A DNA stretch of 64,000 nt, taken from contig JBLMWC010000066.1 in NCBI GenBank assembly GCA_050257015.1, forward strand, positions 4,311 through 68,310, written 5' to 3'. The position numbers and the translations under genes are program-made. Below are positions 14,667 to 22,869 of this stretch, in pieces. The notes under the pieces are model-generated. The model ran no database searches. It saw only the letters and a program-made list of their open reading frames with translations, and was not told the DNA's origin. Position 1 is the stretch's first letter; the number at the start of each line of letters is the position of its first letter. The stretch comes from Bacillota bacterium (GTDB taxonomy: Bacteria > Gemmatimonadota > Gemmatimonadetes > Gemmatimonadales > GWC2-71-9).

Positions 14667-15260
14667 GTGACCCTCAAGAGCAAGATCGCCAAGGCCGCCG
14701 CAGTCGGGGCCGCCGCCGGGGTTGCCGCAGGAGCGGCGCTGCTCCTCCGGAACAAGAAGACGCGGAAGAAGACCAGGAAGCTGGTCGAGCGGGTGGCGGG
14801 AGAGGCACGGAAGCGCGGCGGGAAGCTCGCAGCTGCCGGCGAGAAGCAGGCGAAGGAGCTCGCCACCAGCGGGCGGAAGAAGGCGAAGAAGCTCGCTGCC
14901 GAAGGCAAGAAGCAGGCGAAGGCGGTCGCGCGCGACGGACGGAAGCAGGCCAAGGCTCTCGCCGCCGAGGGGCGGAAGACGGCCAGGAAGGCCGGCAAGG
15001 ACGCGCGGGCAACAACCGTCCGCATCGTTCGCGAGGTGAGCCGGAGCAGCCGGAAGAAGGGGACGGTGCGGGCGCTCGCCGGCGCGGCGGCCGGAGTCGC
15101 CGCACGGGCCGCGGGGCGTGCCGCGCTGGCGGCGATCGCGGACGCCACGTCTCGCAAGCAGGATTCCTCACGGACGACACGCCGCCCGCGCGCGCCGCGC
15201 GCGCAGGAGACCGGCGCGACACTCGGGCCCGACGGGATGCCCGGCCCCTTCGGCGTCTAG
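14667..15260 (+). CDS. YtxH-like basic protein with Lys/Ala-rich 11-residue repeats
   Basis: GTG start with GGAGG upstream. The N-terminal Gly/Ala zipper helix KAAAVGAAAGVAAGAALLLRNKKTRKK is YtxH-like. Five 11-mers follow. Confidence 0.6.
   Translation: MTLKSKIAKAAAVGAAAGVAAGAALLLRNKKTRKKTRKLVERVAGEARKRGGKLAAAGEKQAKELATSGRKKAKKLAAEGKKQAKAVARDGRKQAKALAAEGRKTARKAGKDARATTVRIVREVSRSSRKKGTVRALAGAAAGVAARAAGRAALAAIADATSRKQDSSRTTRRPRAPRAQETGATLGPDGMPGPFGV
14823..14987 (+). repeat. five tandem 33-nt (11-aa) coding repeats inside the YtxH-like gene
   Basis: KLAAAGEKQAK / ELATSGRKKAK / KLAAEGKKQAK / AVARDGRKQAK / ALAAEGRKTAR. Confidence 0.6.
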
Positions 15261-16405
15261 TCCCGGCTGAGGGCGGGCGGCGCGATACGCGCGCCGCCCG
15301 CGCCTTCGAGCCCCCGGCGGTACGCCGCCCGGAGCAGCTCCTGGAAGTGATGGACCCCCGCCTCGTATTTCACCGAGAACCGACCGCGATCATAGGCCCG
15401 GGAGCCGAGCCCCTGCTGCACCCGCGCGCAGATGGCGGCATCCTCCGCCTGAACGGCGTCGCTGTACGCCACATCCTCCTCGATCCGCGTCCGGGCTGCT
15501 GGTGACTCCACGTCGTCGTGGAAGTAGCGGAAAACGACTTCACAGCGGTCGTGAGCCAGCGGCCTCACGTGGTTCGTCTGCAGCCGCCCGGGAAGGATGT
15601 TGAGCATGAAGTTGGGGAACAGGCAGTAGTAGAAGGCGTCGCCGCCGCCGTCCCGCGAATAGAGACTGTTCTCGCCGGTGAGCGGCGAGTACTGGAGCGA
15701 GTACCAGTCGAAGACCTCGGTGACGTACTGCTGGTAGTCGTACAGCTTCACCAGCTCCGGATGGACGTAGGGGACGTGATACCCCTCGAGATAGTTGTCC
15801 ACGTACACCTTCCAGCCGGCCTGCACTTCGTAGCGCACCTCGCGGGAGAAGCGGAGCGCGTCGAGACGCATCGGCGCGATGCGCTCGGCGATCCCCGCCG
15901 TGAACGTCTCGAGCGGGGGCGCGGCCGGATCGAGATTCACGAAGACGAGTCCCTGCCAGGTCTCGACCCGGATCGGGACGAGACTGAAGTCGGCGCGGTC
16001 GAAGAGCTCGGTCCGGTCCATCGCCGGCACGCCGCGCAGCGTCCCGTCGAGGAGGTAGGTCCAGCCGTGATACTTGCACTGGAGCGCGCGGGCGCACCCG
16101 TCCTCCAGCGCGAGCGGGCCGCCGCGATGGCGGCAGACGTTGAAGAAGGCTCGAAGGACCCCATCCTTCCCGCGAACCACGATGACGGGGTCGTCGGCCA
16201 CCGTCGCGACGAGGTATTGCCCTTCGGCGGCGACCTGCGCCGCATGGCCCACGTTCTGCCAGGTCCGCGCGAAGACGAGCTCACTGTCGATCGCATGAAA
16301 CCGCGGGTCGGTATACCAGGCCGACGGGATCGTCTCCGCGCGTGCGAGCGGTTCGTTCGCAAGGGCCGTCGGGTCGATCGCCTGAAGGTCGGGAGGCTGG
16401 CGCAT
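15257..16405 (-). CDS. Rieske [2Fe-2S] non-haem-iron oxygenase alpha subunit, choline-monooxygenase-like
   Basis: ORF 15257..16861 trimmed to ATG 16405, which shares 1 nt with the upstream stop. Rieske motif CRHRGGPL...CKYHGW. Mononuclear iron motif WKVYVDNYLEGYHVPYVHP. Confidence 0.85.
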   Translation of the reverse strand: MRQPPDLQAIDPTALANEPLARAETIPSAWYTDPRFHAIDSELVFARTWQNVGHAAQVAAEGQYLVATVADDPVIVVRGKDGVLRAFFNVCRHRGGPLALEDGCARALQCKYHGWTYLLDGTLRGVPAMDRTELFDRADFSLVPIRVETWQGLVFVNLDPAAPPLETFTAGIAERIAPMRLDALRFSREVRYEVQAGWKVYVDNYLEGYHVPYVHPELVKLYDYQQYVTEVFDWYSLQYSPLTGENSLYSRDGGGDAFYYCLFPNFMLNILPGRLQTNHVRPLAHDRCEVVFRYFHDDVESPAARTRIEEDVAYSDAVQAEDAAICARVQQGLGSRAYDRGRFSVKYEAGVHHFQELLRAAYRRGLEGAGGARIAPPALSRD

Positions 16406-17898
16406 CAGCGTGACTCCTTCGGGATCCAGACCGTCATGTGCTCGAGCCGCGCGAGCGGCGCAAGACCGAGCACCGCGGCCAGGAAGCCGGGCGGGTCCAT
16501 CGGACGGTAGGCTTCGTCGAATCCGACGACCGCACCGTGCTGCTCCTCGAGCGTCCCGGCGAAGTCGCGCAGCGTCGTGGCGTCCGCCGTGTCGGGAAGC
16601 TCGCGCGATGGCCGCCCGGTGAGGAAGTAGACCAGCATCGGGTTGTTGGAGAAGAGCTGGTAGCGGTCGCCATCGGTCTGGAGCCACCGCTGCTCCGCCG
16701 ATGGCTGCCACTTCCGGCCGGAGTAGCCCCAGCCGTCCTCGCCCAGCCCCTCGAGCTGGTCGAGGTTCTCGAGCGTTCCGCCCACGGCCCAGGCGAGGAC
16801 GCCGGCCGCGACCGCGCCCCGCACCGGTGGGCTCCACGCGGACCAGCGGATGCGCAGACACGCCGCGGCGACCACGATCGCCAGCAGGAAGAGCGGCGAC
16901 AGCAGCCGCTCATCGAACGGAATCCCTCCTCCCACGAAGGCGCGCGAGAAGAGGAGCACGCCGGCGTAGCAGAGCGCGAGGAGACCGGCCGCGTTGAAGA
17001 GGCGCCGGCGGCCGGTCGCGCGGGCATCGCGCGGCATCCGCCGAAGGGTGCGCCGCACCAGCCAGACCGCCCCGATGAAGAGCGCGGCCGCAAGGAGCCA
17101 CCGGATCGTCGTGCCGCCGAGCGAAGGCGTGAGCCACTCCGCGGTCGTCCTCATCCCCTCGCGCAGCGTCGCGGGAAGGCCGCGCTGCAGATGCGTCACC
17201 GGCGGCGCTTCCGCCCCGACCGCGTGCAACCGCACCTTCCACCAGGTGTGCAGGACCACGACCGGAAGCGCCGCCTCGAGCGCGCGCTCCACGCGCTCCC
17301 GCCAGGGCCCGCTCCGGCGGAACGCCCACAGGACGGCGGCGATGCCGACCGCGATCCCCGCATAGCGGACCGACTCCGCCGCCGCCGCCGCGAGCCCCGC
17401 GAAGAACGGCCGCTCGGGCCGCCGCACCATCGCGGCGAGTGCGAGCGTCAGGCACATGAGAAAGAGCGGCTCGCTCAGGACTCTGATGTAGTTGTCGAAG
17501 AGCGCCGGCGTGGCGGCGAGGAGCAGCGCGGCGATGACGCCGGCCGGGGTGCCGGCGGTGGACTGCAGCAGGAGCACGATCGTGAGCACCATGACGAATG
17601 CGGCGATCGCCTCGACCCAGCGCGCCGCCTGGACCGGCGAGAGTCCCGCGCCGACGCCGACCGCGATCGCCGCCGGGAAGCCGGCCGGGAACTGGGCCAG
17701 CGCGGAAGTGCTGTCGGTGTCCCACCAGTCCGCGTCGGGAATGCGAAGGCGGCCGGTGCGTGCCAGCGACTCACCGGCGCCGGCGTACGACATCGCGTCG
17801 GGATCGAGGCCGGGCGCGGGCGGACGGCTGATGAACAGGACAGCGCCGCAGGCAAGGGCGCCGGCCACGAGCGCCGCGACGACGCGAGCCCGGATCAC
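16405..17898 (-). CDS. polytopic membrane protein, GT-C / ArnT-PMT-like glycosyltransferase (putative)
   Basis: The real gene is the C-terminal 497 codons of ORF 16405..19152, starting at GTG 17898 (GTGA overlap with the decarboxylase stop). There are more than 10 hydrophobic helices. The first loop, LDPDAMSYAGAGESLARTGRL, resembles the DExxYxxxA loop of GT39/PMT_2 enzymes. A soluble tail of ~110 aa follows. Confidence 0.6.
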   Translation of the reverse strand: MIRARVVAALVAGALACGAVLFISRPPAPGLDPDAMSYAGAGESLARTGRLRIPDADWWDTDSTSALAQFPAGFPAAIAVGVGAGLSPVQAARWVEAIAAFVMVLTIVLLLQSTAGTPAGVIAALLLAATPALFDNYIRVLSEPLFLMCLTLALAAMVRRPERPFFAGLAAAAAESVRYAGIAVGIAAVLWAFRRSGPWRERVERALEAALPVVVLHTWWKVRLHAVGAEAPPVTHLQRGLPATLREGMRTTAEWLTPSLGGTTIRWLLAAALFIGAVWLVRRTLRRMPRDARATGRRRLFNAAGLLALCYAGVLLFSRAFVGGGIPFDERLLSPLFLLAIVVAAACLRIRWSAWSPPVRGAVAAGVLAWAVGGTLENLDQLEGLGEDGWGYSGRKWQPSAEQRWLQTDGDRYQLFSNNPMLVYFLTGRPSRELPDTADATTLRDFAGTLEEQHGAVVGFDEAYRPMDPPGFLAAVLGLAPLARLEHMTVWIPKESR

Positions 17899-19358
17899 CC
17901 GGCGGGCGCGGCCGCGACGTCTCCTGCGGCAAGCAGGCCCCGCGCCGCTTCGGCCAGGCCGTCGAGCAGCGCGCTGGCATGGCTGGACGTCGTGCGCGGA
18001 TTCATGATCGTCACCCTGAGCACCCGCCGGCCGCCGAGTACGGTGGTGGTGATCCAGCCGGCGCCGGAGCGGTTGTACGCTTCGCGGAGCCGCCGGTTCA
18101 GCTCGTCGAGCTCCGGCTCGCCCACACCGGGCGCGACGTAGCGGAAGCAGAGGATGTTCGACTCCGGCTCGTGCATCGCCATGAAGTCGGGCCGCTCGCC
18201 GATCTCCTGCCACAGGCCGTGCGCCACGGCGCAGAGATGATCGTGCAGCGCCGCGAGGCCGCGGAGCCCGTAGCGCTGCAGCGCGACCCAGAGCTTGAGC
18301 ACGTCGACGGGCCGGGAGCAGAGGAAGCTCCGCACCCCCTGATCCCAGGTGTACCCGCCCGGCGCGTGGAAGAGATACGGCGCCCGCTGGGCAAAGGCGC
18401 GCTCCAGCTCCGCTTCGTCGCGGACGAGCAGCATGCCGGTGCCGAGCGGCATGAGGAGAAGCTTGTGCGGATCCCAGGCGATCGAGCGCGCGCGGTTGAT
18501 GCCGTGGACCCGGTGGCGGTGCGTCTCGGAGACGAGGGCGGAGGCGCCGTGCGCGCCGTCCACGTGCAGCCAGATGTCCCGCTGCTCGCAGAGCCGCCCG
18601 ATCGTCTCGAGGTCGTCGAACGAGCCTGTAGCCGTGGATCCGGCGGTGGCGACGACCGCCATGACGGAGAGCCCGTCGCGCGCGCAAGCGTCGAGACGCG
18701 CCGCGAGCGCTGCGGTATCCATGCGATAGTCGCGCGAGGGAACTGCGAGCGCCTGACGCCGCCCGAGTCCGAGCTGCGCGACGGCGCGGGTGACGGCGTA
18801 GTGCGCGTGCTCGCCGGCCAGCACGACGGGCGGCGATGCCCCGACGCCCTCCTCCCAGGCATCGGGGAGGGCGCGCGCGCGGGCCGCGAGGAGCGCGGTG
18901 AATGTCGCCTCGGTGCCACCGGAGGTGAACGTGCCTCCCGAGCCGGCGCCGAGCTTCGCGAGGTCGCACATCCAGCGGATGACCTGGCGCTCGACCAGCG
19001 TCCCCACCGGTGACATCTCGCGCACGGCGACGGAGTTGTTCACCGCGGCCTTGAGCGCCTCGGTCCAGATCGACGCGGCCAGCGGCGCCGAGACCTGGTG
19101 GCCCATGCACATGGGGTGCGAGAGGCGATTTACGTCGGGAAGGATGTCGCACTCGATCCGCGCGAGCACATCGCCCAGCGGCCGGCCGTCGAGGGGCACC
19201 GGTTCGTCGAACCGCGCGGCCAGCGTCTCCGGCTCGGCCGACGAGGAGACGGGACCGTCTCCTCGTCGGGTGGATTCGAGGTAGCCGGCGATCAGTCCGG
19301 CGAACGCGGCGCCGGATTCCGCGCCGGCGTCCTGTTCGAGCTCCGCAATGATCGCCAC
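17895..19358 (-). CDS. group II pyridoxal-phosphate-dependent amino-acid decarboxylase
   Basis: 487 aa. Motifs HPMCMGHQ, GTFTSGGTEA, HVDGAHGA and the PLP-lysine motif SIAWDPHKLL. GTG start 13 nt after the FadJ-like stop. Confidence 0.85.
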   Translation of the reverse strand: MAIIAELEQDAGAESGAAFAGLIAGYLESTRRGDGPVSSSAEPETLAARFDEPVPLDGRPLGDVLARIECDILPDVNRLSHPMCMGHQVSAPLAASIWTEALKAAVNNSVAVREMSPVGTLVERQVIRWMCDLAKLGAGSGGTFTSGGTEATFTALLAARARALPDAWEEGVGASPPVVLAGEHAHYAVTRAVAQLGLGRRQALAVPSRDYRMDTAALAARLDACARDGLSVMAVVATAGSTATGSFDDLETIGRLCEQRDIWLHVDGAHGASALVSETHRHRVHGINRARSIAWDPHKLLLMPLGTGMLLVRDEAELERAFAQRAPYLFHAPGGYTWDQGVRSFLCSRPVDVLKLWVALQRYGLRGLAALHDHLCAVAHGLWQEIGERPDFMAMHEPESNILCFRYVAPGVGEPELDELNRRLREAYNRSGAGWITTTVLGGRRVLRVTIMNPRTTSSHASALLDGLAEAARGLLAAGDVAAAPAG

Positions 19359-19371
19359 AAGGGGATCGGAC

Positions 19372-21504
19372 TCAGTCGGGATAGAACTTCCTCCCCTCGC
19401 TCGCCATCGCCGCCAGCGCGGGCGCCGGGGCGAACCGCTCGCCGTAGACCGAGGCGAGCTCGCTGAGGACCTCCGCCACCCGCCGGGGCCCGAGATCGTC
19501 GATCATCCGGAGCGGCCCGCCGCGAAACGGCGGGAAGCCGATGCCGAAGAGCGCGCCGATGTCGCCATCCCGCGGCGAGCGGATGACCCCTTCACTCGCG
19601 GCCATCGCCGCTTCGTTAAGCATCGCGTACACCAGGCGCTGCTCCACCATGGTGGGAGCCACGCCTTCGCGCGGCTTGATCCCGAGGAGCGCGTAGGCCG
19701 ACGGATCCACGCCGCTCTTCTTCCCGTTCTCGTACCGGTAGAATCCCCGCCCGCTCTTTCGGCCGAGCCGCCCGTCGGCCACCATCTTCGCGATGACGGG
19801 AGAGGGCGCGAGCCGGTCGCCGTACGCGTCGCGCATGACGCCGGCCGCCTTCTCGCCCACGTCGAGACCGACCTCGTCGAGGAGAGCGATGGGCCCGACC
19901 GGGAAGCCGAAGCGCGTCATCGTGCGGTCGATGAGCTCGACCGGCACCCCTTCACTCAGCAGCAACCCCGCCTCGTTGAGGTACGGCATGAGGATTCGGT
20001 TGACCCAGAACCCGGGGCGGTCGCCGACCACGATGACGGTCTTGCCCATCTTCCGGCCGAAGCGCACCGCGGTCACCGTCGCCACCGGAGAAGTGCCCGC
20101 GTGCGGGATGACCTCGAGGAGCGGCATCTTCGCGACCGGCGAGAAGAAGTGCATTCCCAGCACCCGCTCCGGTCGCTCGGCGCCGGACGCGATCTGCGCG
20201 ATCGGAATCGTCCAGGTGTTGGTGGCGCAGATCGCCTCCGGCCGGATCTCGCGCTCGACCTCCGCGAGCACCTGCCGCTTGACGCGGAGATCCTCGAAGA
20301 CCGCCTCGATCACGAGGTCGGCGCGGGTGAAGCCGCTGTAGTCGGCCGCGCCGCTCAGGAGGGCGCTCAGCCGCTGGTATTTCGGCTTCGTGAGCCGCCG
20401 GCGCTGGAGCCTTTCGTCGAGAATCGCCAGCGCCGCCTTCATCCCCTTCCCCACCCTCGGCAGCTCCGCGTCCTTGAGCCGCACTTCGACCTCGGCGTTG
20501 AGCACCGCGGTGCCGGCAATGCCGGAGCCCATGAAACCGGAGCCGACCACGCAGACACGCGTGACCGACGGCGCGGCGATGACCGTCCCGGGCGCGACTC
20601 CGTCATCCTTCTTGAGCGCCGTCGTCGCAAAGAAGATCTGCACCAGCTTCCGGGAGACGTCGCCCACGGCGAGCTGACCGAACCGACGGTGCTCCTCCTC
20701 GAGCCCCGCCCGCATGCCGTGCTCCAGCCCGACGCGCACGGCGTCGAGCGCGGCCAGCGGCGCCGGGAAGTGGCCGCCGGTCTTCCGGAGTACGCTCTTG
20801 TGCGCCTCCTTGTACACGATGCGCCGGCCGAACGGCGTCCGGTCGAGCAGCGCGCCGGCGACGCCGCCCCGCCCCGCGCGGAGCGGCACGCCTCGGCTGG
20901 CCATCCGATCCGCCGCGGCGACCGCGACCTGGCGCAGGATGCTCGCCGGCACCAGCTCGTCCACCATGCCGAGCCGATATGCCTTCTGCGCGCGCTCGCT
21001 CTTGCCCGCGAGGATGATGTCGAGTGCTGCGCGTACGCCGATAAGCCGGGGCAGCCGCTGGGTCCCGCCAGCGCCGGGCAACAGGCCGAGCTGCACCTCG
21101 GGAAGCCCGATCTGCGTCTTCGGGCTGTCGGTCGCGATCCGGTAGTGGCAGGCGAGCGCCAGCTCGAACCCGCCGCCCAGGCACGCACCGTTGATCGCCG
21201 CGATGACCGGCTTGGGGAAGTCGGCGACGCGGTTCATCGTCGCCTGGCCGTCGCGGCTCAGCGCCTCCGCGTCGGCCTGGGTACGGAGGCGGACGAACTC
21301 CTCGATGTCCGCCCCGGCGATGAAGGTGTCGGGCTTCCCCGAGATCAGCACCACCGCGCGCACCCCGCCATCGGTGGCGAGACGCTCGAGCAGTGCCTTG
21401 AATTCGTCGGAGACGGCGGCGTTCAGCTTGTTGACCGGCTCGCCCGGCAGATCGATCGTGACGACCGCGATCCCATTGTCGGTGGCGACGGTGAACGCGC
21501 TCAT
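19372..21504 (-). CDS. fatty-acid oxidation multifunctional alpha subunit (enoyl-CoA hydratase / 3-hydroxyacyl-CoA dehydrogenase), FadJ/FadB type
   Basis: ORF 19372..22518 trimmed to ATG 21504 (ATGA overlap with the thiolase stop). The N-terminus is crotonase-like (AVVLISGKPDTFIAGADI). Rossmann motif VCVVGSGFMGSGIA. Confidence 0.9.
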   Translation of the reverse strand: MSAFTVATDNGIAVVTIDLPGEPVNKLNAAVSDEFKALLERLATDGGVRAVVLISGKPDTFIAGADIEEFVRLRTQADAEALSRDGQATMNRVADFPKPVIAAINGACLGGGFELALACHYRIATDSPKTQIGLPEVQLGLLPGAGGTQRLPRLIGVRAALDIILAGKSERAQKAYRLGMVDELVPASILRQVAVAAADRMASRGVPLRAGRGGVAGALLDRTPFGRRIVYKEAHKSVLRKTGGHFPAPLAALDAVRVGLEHGMRAGLEEEHRRFGQLAVGDVSRKLVQIFFATTALKKDDGVAPGTVIAAPSVTRVCVVGSGFMGSGIAGTAVLNAEVEVRLKDAELPRVGKGMKAALAILDERLQRRRLTKPKYQRLSALLSGAADYSGFTRADLVIEAVFEDLRVKRQVLAEVEREIRPEAICATNTWTIPIAQIASGAERPERVLGMHFFSPVAKMPLLEVIPHAGTSPVATVTAVRFGRKMGKTVIVVGDRPGFWVNRILMPYLNEAGLLLSEGVPVELIDRTMTRFGFPVGPIALLDEVGLDVGEKAAGVMRDAYGDRLAPSPVIAKMVADGRLGRKSGRGFYRYENGKKSGVDPSAYALLGIKPREGVAPTMVEQRLVYAMLNEAAMAASEGVIRSPRDGDIGALFGIGFPPFRGGPLRMIDDLGPRRVAEVLSELASVYGERFAPAPALAAMASEGRKFYPD

Positions 21505-22796
21505 GTCCGCTCCAGCACCATCGCGTATCCCATGCCGCCCTGCGCGCAGATTGAGATGAGGCCGAACTGGACATCCCGCCGGCGCATCTCGTTGGCGAGC
21601 TGGGTGGTGAGCCGGGCGCCGGTGGCGGCGAACGGATGGCCCACCGCGATCGAGCCCCCCATCACGTTGGTGCGGTTCCAGTCCACCTCGCCCACCGGAC
21701 CGGAGAGGCCGAGTCGCTCGGCCCACGCCGGCGAGGCCCAGGCCTGCACGTTGGAGAGCACCTGCGCGGCGAACGCTTCGTGGATCTCGACCAGACCGAG
21801 CTCGGACCAGCCGATCCCCGCGCGCGAGAGCGCCTTCGGCACCGCGGTGGCCGGGCCCATGAGGAGCTGCCACGCCGGGTCCACCGCCGTGACGGCGTAG
21901 CTCCGGATGTACGCAAGCGGCTCGTACCCCAGCGCGCGGGCCTTCTCGTCCGACATGACCAGCACCGCCGCCGCGCCGTCGGTGAGCGGTGAGGAGTTGC
22001 CGGCGGTGACCGTTCCGTAGCGCCGGTCGAAGACCGGCCGGAGGTTCGCGAGCGCTTCGAGCGAGGTGTCGGTGCGGATGCCGTTGTCGCTGGTGACGAC
22101 TTCGTCCATCCCGCGTCCCCCGAACCACGGGATGATCTCCGCCGTCATCCGGCCGTCGGCGGTGGCGGCCGCGGCCCGCTGATGGCTCATCAGGGCGAAC
22201 CGGTCCTGCGCGTCGCGGCTGATGCCGTTCTCCTTCGCCATCTTCTCGGCCGATTGACCCATGCTCTCGCCGGTGGACGGCTCCGCGATGGCGGGGGTGA
22301 CGGGGATCAGGTCGCGGGGGCGGACCCGGCTGAACGCGGACAGGCGCGCACCGAAGGACTTTGCCTTGCTGGCGTCGACCAGCGTGCGGCTGAAGCGGCG
22401 CGAATGCAGGACCGGGATGTCCGAGAGCGACTCGACACCGCCGGCGAGGATGACGTCGGCGTTGCCGCGCTCGATCTGGTCGGCGGCGTTGGTGATCGCC
22501 TGGGCGCCGGACGCGCACGCGCGGTTGAGCGAATAGCCCGGAACGGTGAACGGGAGCTGGGGAAGGAGACTGACTTCGCGGCCGACGTTGGGGGTGAGGA
22601 CCGAGACCACGACCTGGCCCCAGATGACCTCGTCCACCGCGCGGCCATCGAGCTCCGCCCGGTAGAGCAGCTCCTTCGCGGCCTCGCGCGCGAGCGCCAC
22701 GGCGGGCACGTCGCGGAAGATGGTGCCGCTGCGGGCGAACGGTGTGCGCACCCCCGCGACGATCGCAGCGCGGCGGGATGGCGGGACAGTCGACAT
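21501..22796 (-). CDS. acetyl-CoA C-acyltransferase (3-ketoacyl-CoA thiolase)
   Basis: Active-site region NRACASGAQAI. C-terminal ISICAQGGMG. 431 aa. Confidence 0.9.
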   Translation of the reverse strand: MSTVPPSRRAAIVAGVRTPFARSGTIFRDVPAVALAREAAKELLYRAELDGRAVDEVIWGQVVVSVLTPNVGREVSLLPQLPFTVPGYSLNRACASGAQAITNAADQIERGNADVILAGGVESLSDIPVLHSRRFSRTLVDASKAKSFGARLSAFSRVRPRDLIPVTPAIAEPSTGESMGQSAEKMAKENGISRDAQDRFALMSHQRAAAATADGRMTAEIIPWFGGRGMDEVVTSDNGIRTDTSLEALANLRPVFDRRYGTVTAGNSSPLTDGAAAVLVMSDEKARALGYEPLAYIRSYAVTAVDPAWQLLMGPATAVPKALSRAGIGWSELGLVEIHEAFAAQVLSNVQAWASPAWAERLGLSGPVGEVDWNRTNVMGGSIAVGHPFAATGARLTTQLANEMRRRDVQFGLISICAQGGMGYAMVLERT

Positions 22797-22869
22797 GTCA
22801 CCCTTTCGCGGTATACTCTTCTATACTCGCACCGTCCAAAGGAAGCATTTGCGCGCCCGGGCAAGATAA

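Follow-up and report, generated by a model that had tools for sequence, protein, structure and literature searches.

Organization of the fadIJ-D-M-R locus

We analyzed a 64,000-nucleotide stretch (the window) of contig JBLMWC010000066.1 (assembly GCA_050257015.1), which belongs to the metagenome-assembled genome of a soil Gemmatimonadales bacterium. The window has a G+C content of 70% and carries five co-directional genes on its minus strand: a fadI-like and a fadJ gene, followed by genes for a predicted pyridoxal 5'-phosphate (PLP)-dependent amino acid decarboxylase (designated D), a membrane protein predicted to have the GT-C glycosyltransferase fold (M), and a predicted Rieske oxygenase (R) (Table 1). 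A preliminary description of the sequence had noted that D, M, and R are chained by overlapping stop and start codons close behind fadJ. It had suggested that the three make and tailor an amine that is transferred to an envelope lipid or glycan. The arrangement was confirmed here, and the evidence from related genomes leans toward a composite operon of separately inherited genes and away from a single pathway.

Reading the minus strand, the fadJ stop codon (TGA, 19374-19372) is followed after a gap of 13 nucleotides (nt) by the GTG start of D (19358-19356). The sequence GTGA at 17898-17895 is common to the D stop and the M start. At the M/R junction, TGATG comprises the M stop (TGA, 16407-16405) and the R start (ATG, 16405-16403), which share the A at 16405. 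The gene caller also placed a 4-nt overlap between the 3' end of fadI and the start of fadJ. An independent gene caller, based on codon usage and trained on these loci, reproduced the coordinates of D, M, and R, and the public gene call on a Joint Genome Institute (JGI) contig, in which the M protein is identical, gives the same genes. Both the 4-nt (D/M) and the 1-nt (M/R) overlap also were found in a congener (G005). Flags for a TGA inside D of congeners proved to be the normal stop, with the alignment continuing beyond it. The R stop codon (TAG, 15259-15257) overlaps the stop of a convergent gene; this 4-nt overlap, at 15257-15260, leaves no space for a terminator between the two.

A scan for promoters and terminators returned nothing above chance within the unit and no promoter-like site in or between D, M, and R. 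The single sigma-70-like match (22790-22817, plus strand) falls in the divergent region upstream of fadI. Because the junctions are tight and the only sigma-70-like site lies upstream of fadI, the simplest reading of the sequence is that fadI to R are probably transcribed as one unit. As for the first two genes, the FadJ assignment is above its model cutoff (Table 1), and the fadI-like product scored 547 bits against the NCBIfam FadI model (PRK08963), slightly below the cutoff of 560.

Table 1. Features of the locus, with predicted products, in window coordinates
Feature	Position	Strand	Basis or remark
Divergent intergenic region upstream of fadI	22797..22869		Sole promoter-like site in the scanned stretch
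fadI-like 3-ketoacyl-CoA thiolase	21501..22796	-	First in the co-directional run; Pfam Thiolase_N and Thiolase_C
fadJ, enoyl-CoA hydratase/3-hydroxyacyl-CoA dehydrogenase, 710 amino acids	19372..21504	-	NCBIfam FadJ PRK11154, 908.7 bits (cutoff, 869)
D, group II PLP-dependent amino acid decarboxylase, 487 amino acids	17895..19358	-	Pyridoxal_deC
M, GT-C fold membrane glycosyltransferase (ArnT/PMT-like), 497 amino acids	16405..17898	-	AlphaFold2, Foldseek, VIA-align, PMT_2
R, group Va-like Rieske nonheme iron oxygenase alpha subunit (CntA/choline monooxygenase-like), 382 amino acids	15257..16405	-	Pfam Rieske and Ring_hydroxyl_A
Convergent 197-amino-acid gene, 3' boundary of the unit	14667..15260	+	Gene calls; no Pfam family on record

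D, M, and R occur in different combinations in related genomes

The distribution of the three genes was assessed in 401 sampled Gemmatimonadota genomes, with orthologues of R defined by an E value of at most 1e-80 and those of D by an E value of at most 1e-120. The survey genomes are drafts (G000 is 83% complete), and absences are read from single-protein queries. M was found in 54 genomes, nearly all of one order, and R and D orthologues were each found in 74; the M and R tallies include two unpublished genomes (G019 and G177) on which no specific claim rests. D, M, and R are adjacent in all six genomes of the window's genus (the window and five others). When coordinates were compared across the survey, this genus was the only one in which M lies next to D or R.

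Outside the genus, the trio comes apart in several ways. In two neighboring genera, represented by G137 and G203, D and R are adjacent with a gap of 14 to 16 nt and without M between them; their R proteins are 77% and 72% identical, respectively, to that of the window, and a single protein query found no M homologue in either draft genome (100% and 98% complete). The D-R pair lies away from fadIJ in G137 and is parted from fadJ by two opposite-strand genes in G203. The genome with the closest M outside the genus (G410, 45% identity) carries fadI-fadJ-M-proline dehydrogenase-small open reading frame-rsgA on one strand (L047:1-6665), with neither D nor R; the proline dehydrogenase-rsgA block also is present a few kilobases off in the window. 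In five further genomes (G096, G098, G100, G226, and G270), all three genes are present but dispersed, either on separate contigs or at distances above 80 kb. From the contents found in G137/G203, G410, and the window's genus, the slot between fadJ and the proline dehydrogenase-rsgA block is therefore a variable region that holds D, M, and R, D and R, or M, depending on the genus. Adjacency of the trio is not kept across lineages, and with it the proposal of one amine-to-envelope pathway loses its support from gene neighborhoods: related genomes have D-R without M, M without D-R, or all three apart.

M is predicted to be a GT-C glycosyltransferase

By sequence, M matched Pfam PMT_2 marginally (28.4 bits; cutoff, 26.1) and matched no NCBIfam family, and a search of the PDB gave no match with an E value below 0.09. 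An AlphaFold2 model built with 44 family members had a mean predicted local distance difference test (pLDDT) score of 94.3 and a predicted template modeling (pTM) score of 0.93. It comprises about 11 transmembrane helices and a C-terminal alpha/beta domain of approximately 100 amino acids. Foldseek placed ArnT (5f15/5ezm) on top, with an E value of 5.6e-8. In VIA-align, ArnT was the best full-length match (Z score of 20.9 over residues 1 to 497, with 425 residues aligned at a root mean square deviation of 4.3), and Pmt4 and Pmt1/2 scored 21.5 to 23.3 over the membrane part (residues 1 to 388). Z scores of 17 to 23 were obtained for Pmt, ArnT, STT3/PglB, ALG9/12, and AftA/B, and the first non-GT-C entry scored 6.9. 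On the strength of this model, M is assigned to the GT-C fold as an ArnT/PMT-like protein. The expectation of more than 10 transmembrane helices, an ArnT/PMT-like first loop, and a soluble tail thus was borne out, as was that of a GT-C fold.

The first loop after transmembrane helix 1 reads PGLDPDxxSY, in which PGLDPD is nearly invariant; Y38 is present in every one of the 44 members and D34 in no fewer than 90% of them. Other invariant residues of the family are S142-E143-P144, R178-Y179, R319, D329, and R331, and the SEP, RY, and IPFDERxLSP motifs also are kept. To judge from the helix count, all of these motifs would lie on the periplasmic side. M shares with ArnT of Cupriavidus metallidurans and with Pmt1/2 and Pmt4 the whole-length fold, including the C-terminal soluble domain, and an acidic first-loop motif followed by Tyr. 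It differs from them in having about 11 transmembrane helices, in an identity of only 14 to 16% with no sequence-level PDB match, and in having no arn-like or dolichol/undecaprenyl-sugar synthesis genes nearby.

An ArnT-type operon was considered for M and set aside: no arn-like genes were seen in the 13 M neighborhoods looked at, no sugar-nucleotide or polyprenyl-phosphate sugar genes are conserved beside M, and M does not qualify as an ArnT (GT83) orthologue. M homologues elsewhere adjoin genes for an extracytoplasmic function sigma factor, an S46 peptidase, DinB, a PEMT-like protein, S-adenosylmethionine synthetase, and others, with no recurring sugar-donor partner. In two genera (L048:914-4354 and L049:1203-4652), a 1,146- to 1,149-amino-acid fusion of GH18, polysaccharide deacetylase, and GT2 domains is encoded near M. 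M proteins are 67 to 73% identical within the window's genus and at most 45% identical to any M outside it. In the M tree, the genus sits on a long stem whose branching position is not fixed and does not separate insertion of M between D and R from loss of M from D-M-R.

What GT-C enzymes transfer is a glycosyl group taken from a polyprenyl-phosphate donor, and not a free amine. Because of this chemistry, and because M is found without D-R and D-R without M, in complete genomes and across many lineages, M most likely has no share in the function of D and R.

D is predicted to be a group II decarboxylase

D matched Pyridoxal_deC (PF00282) at 230.7 bits (cutoff, 27), with residues 43 to 407 covering profile positions 1 to 374 of 375. 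Its translation carries the motifs DPHK (AWDPHKLL) and HVDGAHGA (LHVDGAHGA), which we take, from knowledge of the family and not from a structure, to supply the PLP-binding Lys and the Asp that pairs with the pyridine nitrogen. In agreement with the preliminary description, its sequence identifies D as a putative group II PLP decarboxylase. D fell below every NCBIfam equivalog cutoff by a wide margin, including those for L-2,4-diaminobutyrate (DABA) decarboxylase (NF052646; 234.6 against 900) and PanP (TIGR03799; 152.7 against 606.1). The best solved relatives were DesA (5o5c), 4rit, GADL1, CSAD, and DABA decarboxylase (E values of 2e-61 to 1e-53), and D is about equidistant from DesA, an uncharacterized Sphaerobacter enzyme, GADL1, CSAD, and DABA decarboxylase. 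The name L-2,4-diaminobutyrate decarboxylase on many D homologues is JGI's own label and not a tested function.

D resembles the group II decarboxylases of basic and acidic amino acids (DesA, DABA decarboxylase [RhbB/Ddc], and GADL1/CSAD) in its full-length Pyridoxal_deC domain and PLP-lysine motif. It differs in that D has no Dat aminotransferase, IucA/IucC synthetase, or N-hydroxylase gene nearby. A siderophore or polyamine pathway, which the preliminary description had named as a competing explanation for D, was rejected: no IucA/IucC domain was found in the source genome, and no Dat aminotransferase or N-hydroxylase gene adjoins D or its orthologues. D orthologues elsewhere are singletons beside genes for efflux pumps, two-component systems, PAP2/PLD proteins, carotenoid synthesis, or BNR proteins. 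In one genus (G027, L015:6998-11078, and G039, L019), same-strand PAP2 phosphatase and PLD-like genes follow the D orthologue, a context suggestive of lipid head groups. The first gene after the D orthologue in G027 is 2'-5' RNA ligase-like, and such a gene also follows D in G037 (L016). The R-linked D sequences did not form a clade in a tree rooted on a paralogue, although the outgroup branch is far too long for this rooting to be trusted.

R is predicted to be a group Va-like Rieske oxygenase

R matched the Pfam Rieske (67.3 bits) and Ring_hydroxyl_A (125.1 bits) families and, over residues 23 to 351, carnitine monooxygenase CntA of Acinetobacter baumannii (6y8j) with an E value of 6.7e-48. 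The motif WKVYVDNYLEGYHVPYVHP, on which the initial comparison with choline monooxygenase had been based, is present at residues 198 to 216. Residues C91, H93, C110, H113, E207, H210, H215, and D322 are invariant among 16 family members. The iron ligands are His210, His215, and Asp322, and the metal ligands and bridging Glu207 align with those of CntA (roles from PMC7948474). Tyr205 of R, in the sequence DNYLEGYH, aligns with CntA Tyr203, and Tyr or Phe occupies this position across the family. An aromatic residue there divides group Va (CntA, choline monooxygenase, and OxyBAC) from group Vb (Stc2 and GbcA/BmoA) (PMC7948474). Because of this aromatic residue, R is classed by its sequence as group Va-like, which upholds the assignment to choline monooxygenase-like enzymes. 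Against the GbcA model (NF058607), R scored 168.9, over residues 24 to 220 only, with an equivalog cutoff of 670.

The likeness to CntA and group Va includes full-length homology, the Rieske CxH...CxxH motif, the 2-His-1-carboxylate iron site with its bridging Glu, the aromatic residue at the pi-cation position, and the lack of a beta subunit. Of seven substrate-pocket residues of CntA (PMC7948474), four are identical in R (Y203, Y225, N270, and Y315), two are conservatively replaced (F258 by Tyr and Y295 by Phe), and one differs (Phe319, which is Val). R also differs in lacking the Cys-X-X-Cys pair that some group V enzymes have beside the iron site (PMC10952381), Gly208 and Val211 standing in place of CntA Cys206 and Cys209. 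There is no CntB-type reductase gene near R, and its usual partner is an APC permease, not cnt genes; in the window, its neighbors are D and M. A search for a reductase partner failed at each level: none is encoded in the unit, no PF00175 reductase domain was found in the source genome (83% complete), and no reductase gene recurs as a neighbor of R across the 79 loci described below.

R belongs to a widespread family usually paired with an APC permease

A scan of one genome per species gave at least 599 matches to R, and neighborhoods were taken from the best 80 (43 to 72% identity), for which 79 loci were read. These 80 are spread over Gemmatimonadota, Bacteroidota, Ignavibacteria, Rhodothermales, Gammaproteobacteria, Chloroflexota, Acidobacteriota, and Armatimonadota, and cultured carriers include Dyella, Rhodanobacter, Lysobacter, Pseudoxanthomonas, and Microbulbifer. 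A same-strand APC amino acid permease gene lies directly downstream of R in 37 of the 79 loci, in several phyla (e.g., L056:1870-4448). The R proteins of this two-gene cassette belong to the same orthologous family and are 45 to 64% identical across phyla. The window's genus and those of G137 and G203 differ in that the permease is absent and a decarboxylase gene stands upstream instead; a GT-C gene between decarboxylase and R is found in the window's genus alone. D was within 6 kb of R in one of the 79 loci (L054, a Gemmatimonadales metagenome-assembled genome) and M in none.

Other neighbors of R encode an S58 aminopeptidase, penicillin amidase, gamma-glutamyltranspeptidase, and a DcuC carrier. 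In five Acidobacteriota loci (L108:4349-5794, L112, L128, L130, and L132), a same-strand aldehyde dehydrogenase gene lies directly upstream of R, which fits a CntA-like, aldehyde-releasing reaction. In G245 (Gemmatimonadales; L040:5775-9411), 4-nt and 1-nt overlaps join R to the genes for an S58 (DmpA/BapA-type) aminopeptidase and an APC permease. The R orthologue of G015 (L023:5811-9039; 63% identical) has 4-nt overlaps with genes for a chorismate-binding enzyme and an aldo/keto reductase on either side, unlike its other contexts. A second, independent instance of a decarboxylase close to R is found in G037 (L024:1703-6789), where a group II decarboxylase paralogue is grouped with an APC permease on the opposite strand, an R homologue (45%), and an LPG_synthase_TM membrane protein. 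In G021, a block of an isocitrate/isopropylmalate dehydrogenase-family gene, R, YceI, and neighbors occurs twice, on two contigs (L020 and L021), with R copies 67 to 68% identical to that of the window.

A composite operon and the readings that compete with it

Our preferred reading, to which we assign a probability of roughly 0.5, takes the five co-directional genes fadI-fadJ-D-M-R as a genuine unit, probably transcribed together, in which D, M, and R were inherited separately and, in one Gemmatimonadales genus, packed into a slot behind fadIJ that is prone to rearrangement. We give about an even chance to the companion view that the overlapping stops and starts reflect compaction, the ordinary packaging of an operon, and not a shared pathway. 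Within such a unit, D would convert an amino acid to an amine by decarboxylation, the chemistry of its family. M, to judge from its fold and conserved residues, would face the periplasm and glycosylate an envelope acceptor with a sugar taken from a polyprenyl-phosphate donor, a reaction in which the conserved acidic first loop (LDPD) and conserved Arg and Glu residues would take part. R would act as an alpha3-type Rieske monooxygenase of the CntA/choline monooxygenase group and, in most lineages, would have as its substrate an ammonium-bearing compound brought into the cell by the APC permease encoded next to it. Several points weigh against the composite reading. The 4-nt and 1-nt overlaps are kept within the genus, and tight translational coupling is commoner among functionally linked genes. 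The adjacency of D and R in three genera could mean that these two, at least, cooperate, and the long branch of the genus's M (at most 45% identity to others, compared with 67 to 73% within) would be compatible with a new role. The absence of M from G137 and G203 comes from one protein query against draft genomes.

The adjacency of D and R also is the starting point for a tentative alternative, which we consider possible: a two-enzyme module with M as a passenger, in which D would make an amine or omega-amino acid in the cell and R would oxidize it next to the nitrogen, with release of an aldehyde, as CntA acts on carnitine. In this clade, decarboxylation would then take the place of import by the APC permease as the source of substrate. 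L054 and the genera represented by G000, G137, and G203 all carry the pair and lack the usual permease of R beside it, and the decarboxylase beside a permease and an R homologue in G037 is a paralogue of D (32% identical). The well-aligned CntA pocket residues and the aldehyde dehydrogenase genes of the Acidobacteriota loci argue in the same direction. However, the three genera are close kin, so that one event in their history may explain the adjacency; among the 79 loci from other species, a decarboxylase lies within 6 kb of R only in L054, D orthologues mostly stand alone, and the R-linked D sequences are not a clade. A bolder form, which we regard as unlikely, would make R and its permease-linked orthologues a novel type of group V Rieske oxygenase that removes nitrogen oxidatively from a small omega-ammonium carboxylate (for example, gamma-aminobutyrate, beta-alanine, or a betaine of either) to give an aldehyde, with import by the permease swapped in the window's clade for production in the cell by D.

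A pathway of three steps, with D making an amine, R tailoring it, and M placing the amine or an amine-bearing sugar on an envelope lipid or glycan, now appears improbable. It would account for the overlaps that chain D, M, and R and are kept in the genus, for the likeness of M to ArnT, an amino-sugar transferase, and for the strong divergence of the genus's M from other M proteins. The trio is confined to one genus, however, with D-R without M and M without D-R elsewhere, and the unit includes no sugar-activation or polyprenyl-phosphate glycosyltransferase gene; moreover, we know of no GT-C enzyme that transfers free amines. In line with the earlier remark, we found no described pathway with decarboxylase, GT-C, and Rieske activities together, and a literature search for clusters of a Rieske enzyme with a PLP decarboxylase returned nothing relevant. 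We give very little credence to the idea that D, M, and R extend fadIJ beta-oxidation, for example in the breakdown of an amino-lipid or acyl-amine whose head group is handled by D and R. D begins 13 nt behind fadJ, no promoter-like site intervenes, and in other genera fadJ lies close to D-R (G203) or immediately precedes M (G410). Yet D-R lies away from fadIJ in G137, two opposite-strand genes intervene in G203, and in many bacteria the fadIJ pair is complete and functions by itself.

Significance for the R and M families

As found, the overlap of the three genes matters little in itself, in that tight overlap in a compact, high-GC genome need not mean a shared pathway. The interest lies in the individual families. 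The CntA-like R family is very widespread and well conserved and is still uncharacterized, and its cultured carriers make the substrate directly testable. The variant in which D accompanies R is a hint to what that substrate looks like; if R were a nitrogen-removing oxygenase fed by D, the two would lead from an amino acid to a semialdehyde without a transaminase. The M family is likewise well conserved, with a clear set of motifs, and in this survey is almost confined to Gemmatimonadales, where it could mark a lineage-specific envelope glycan.

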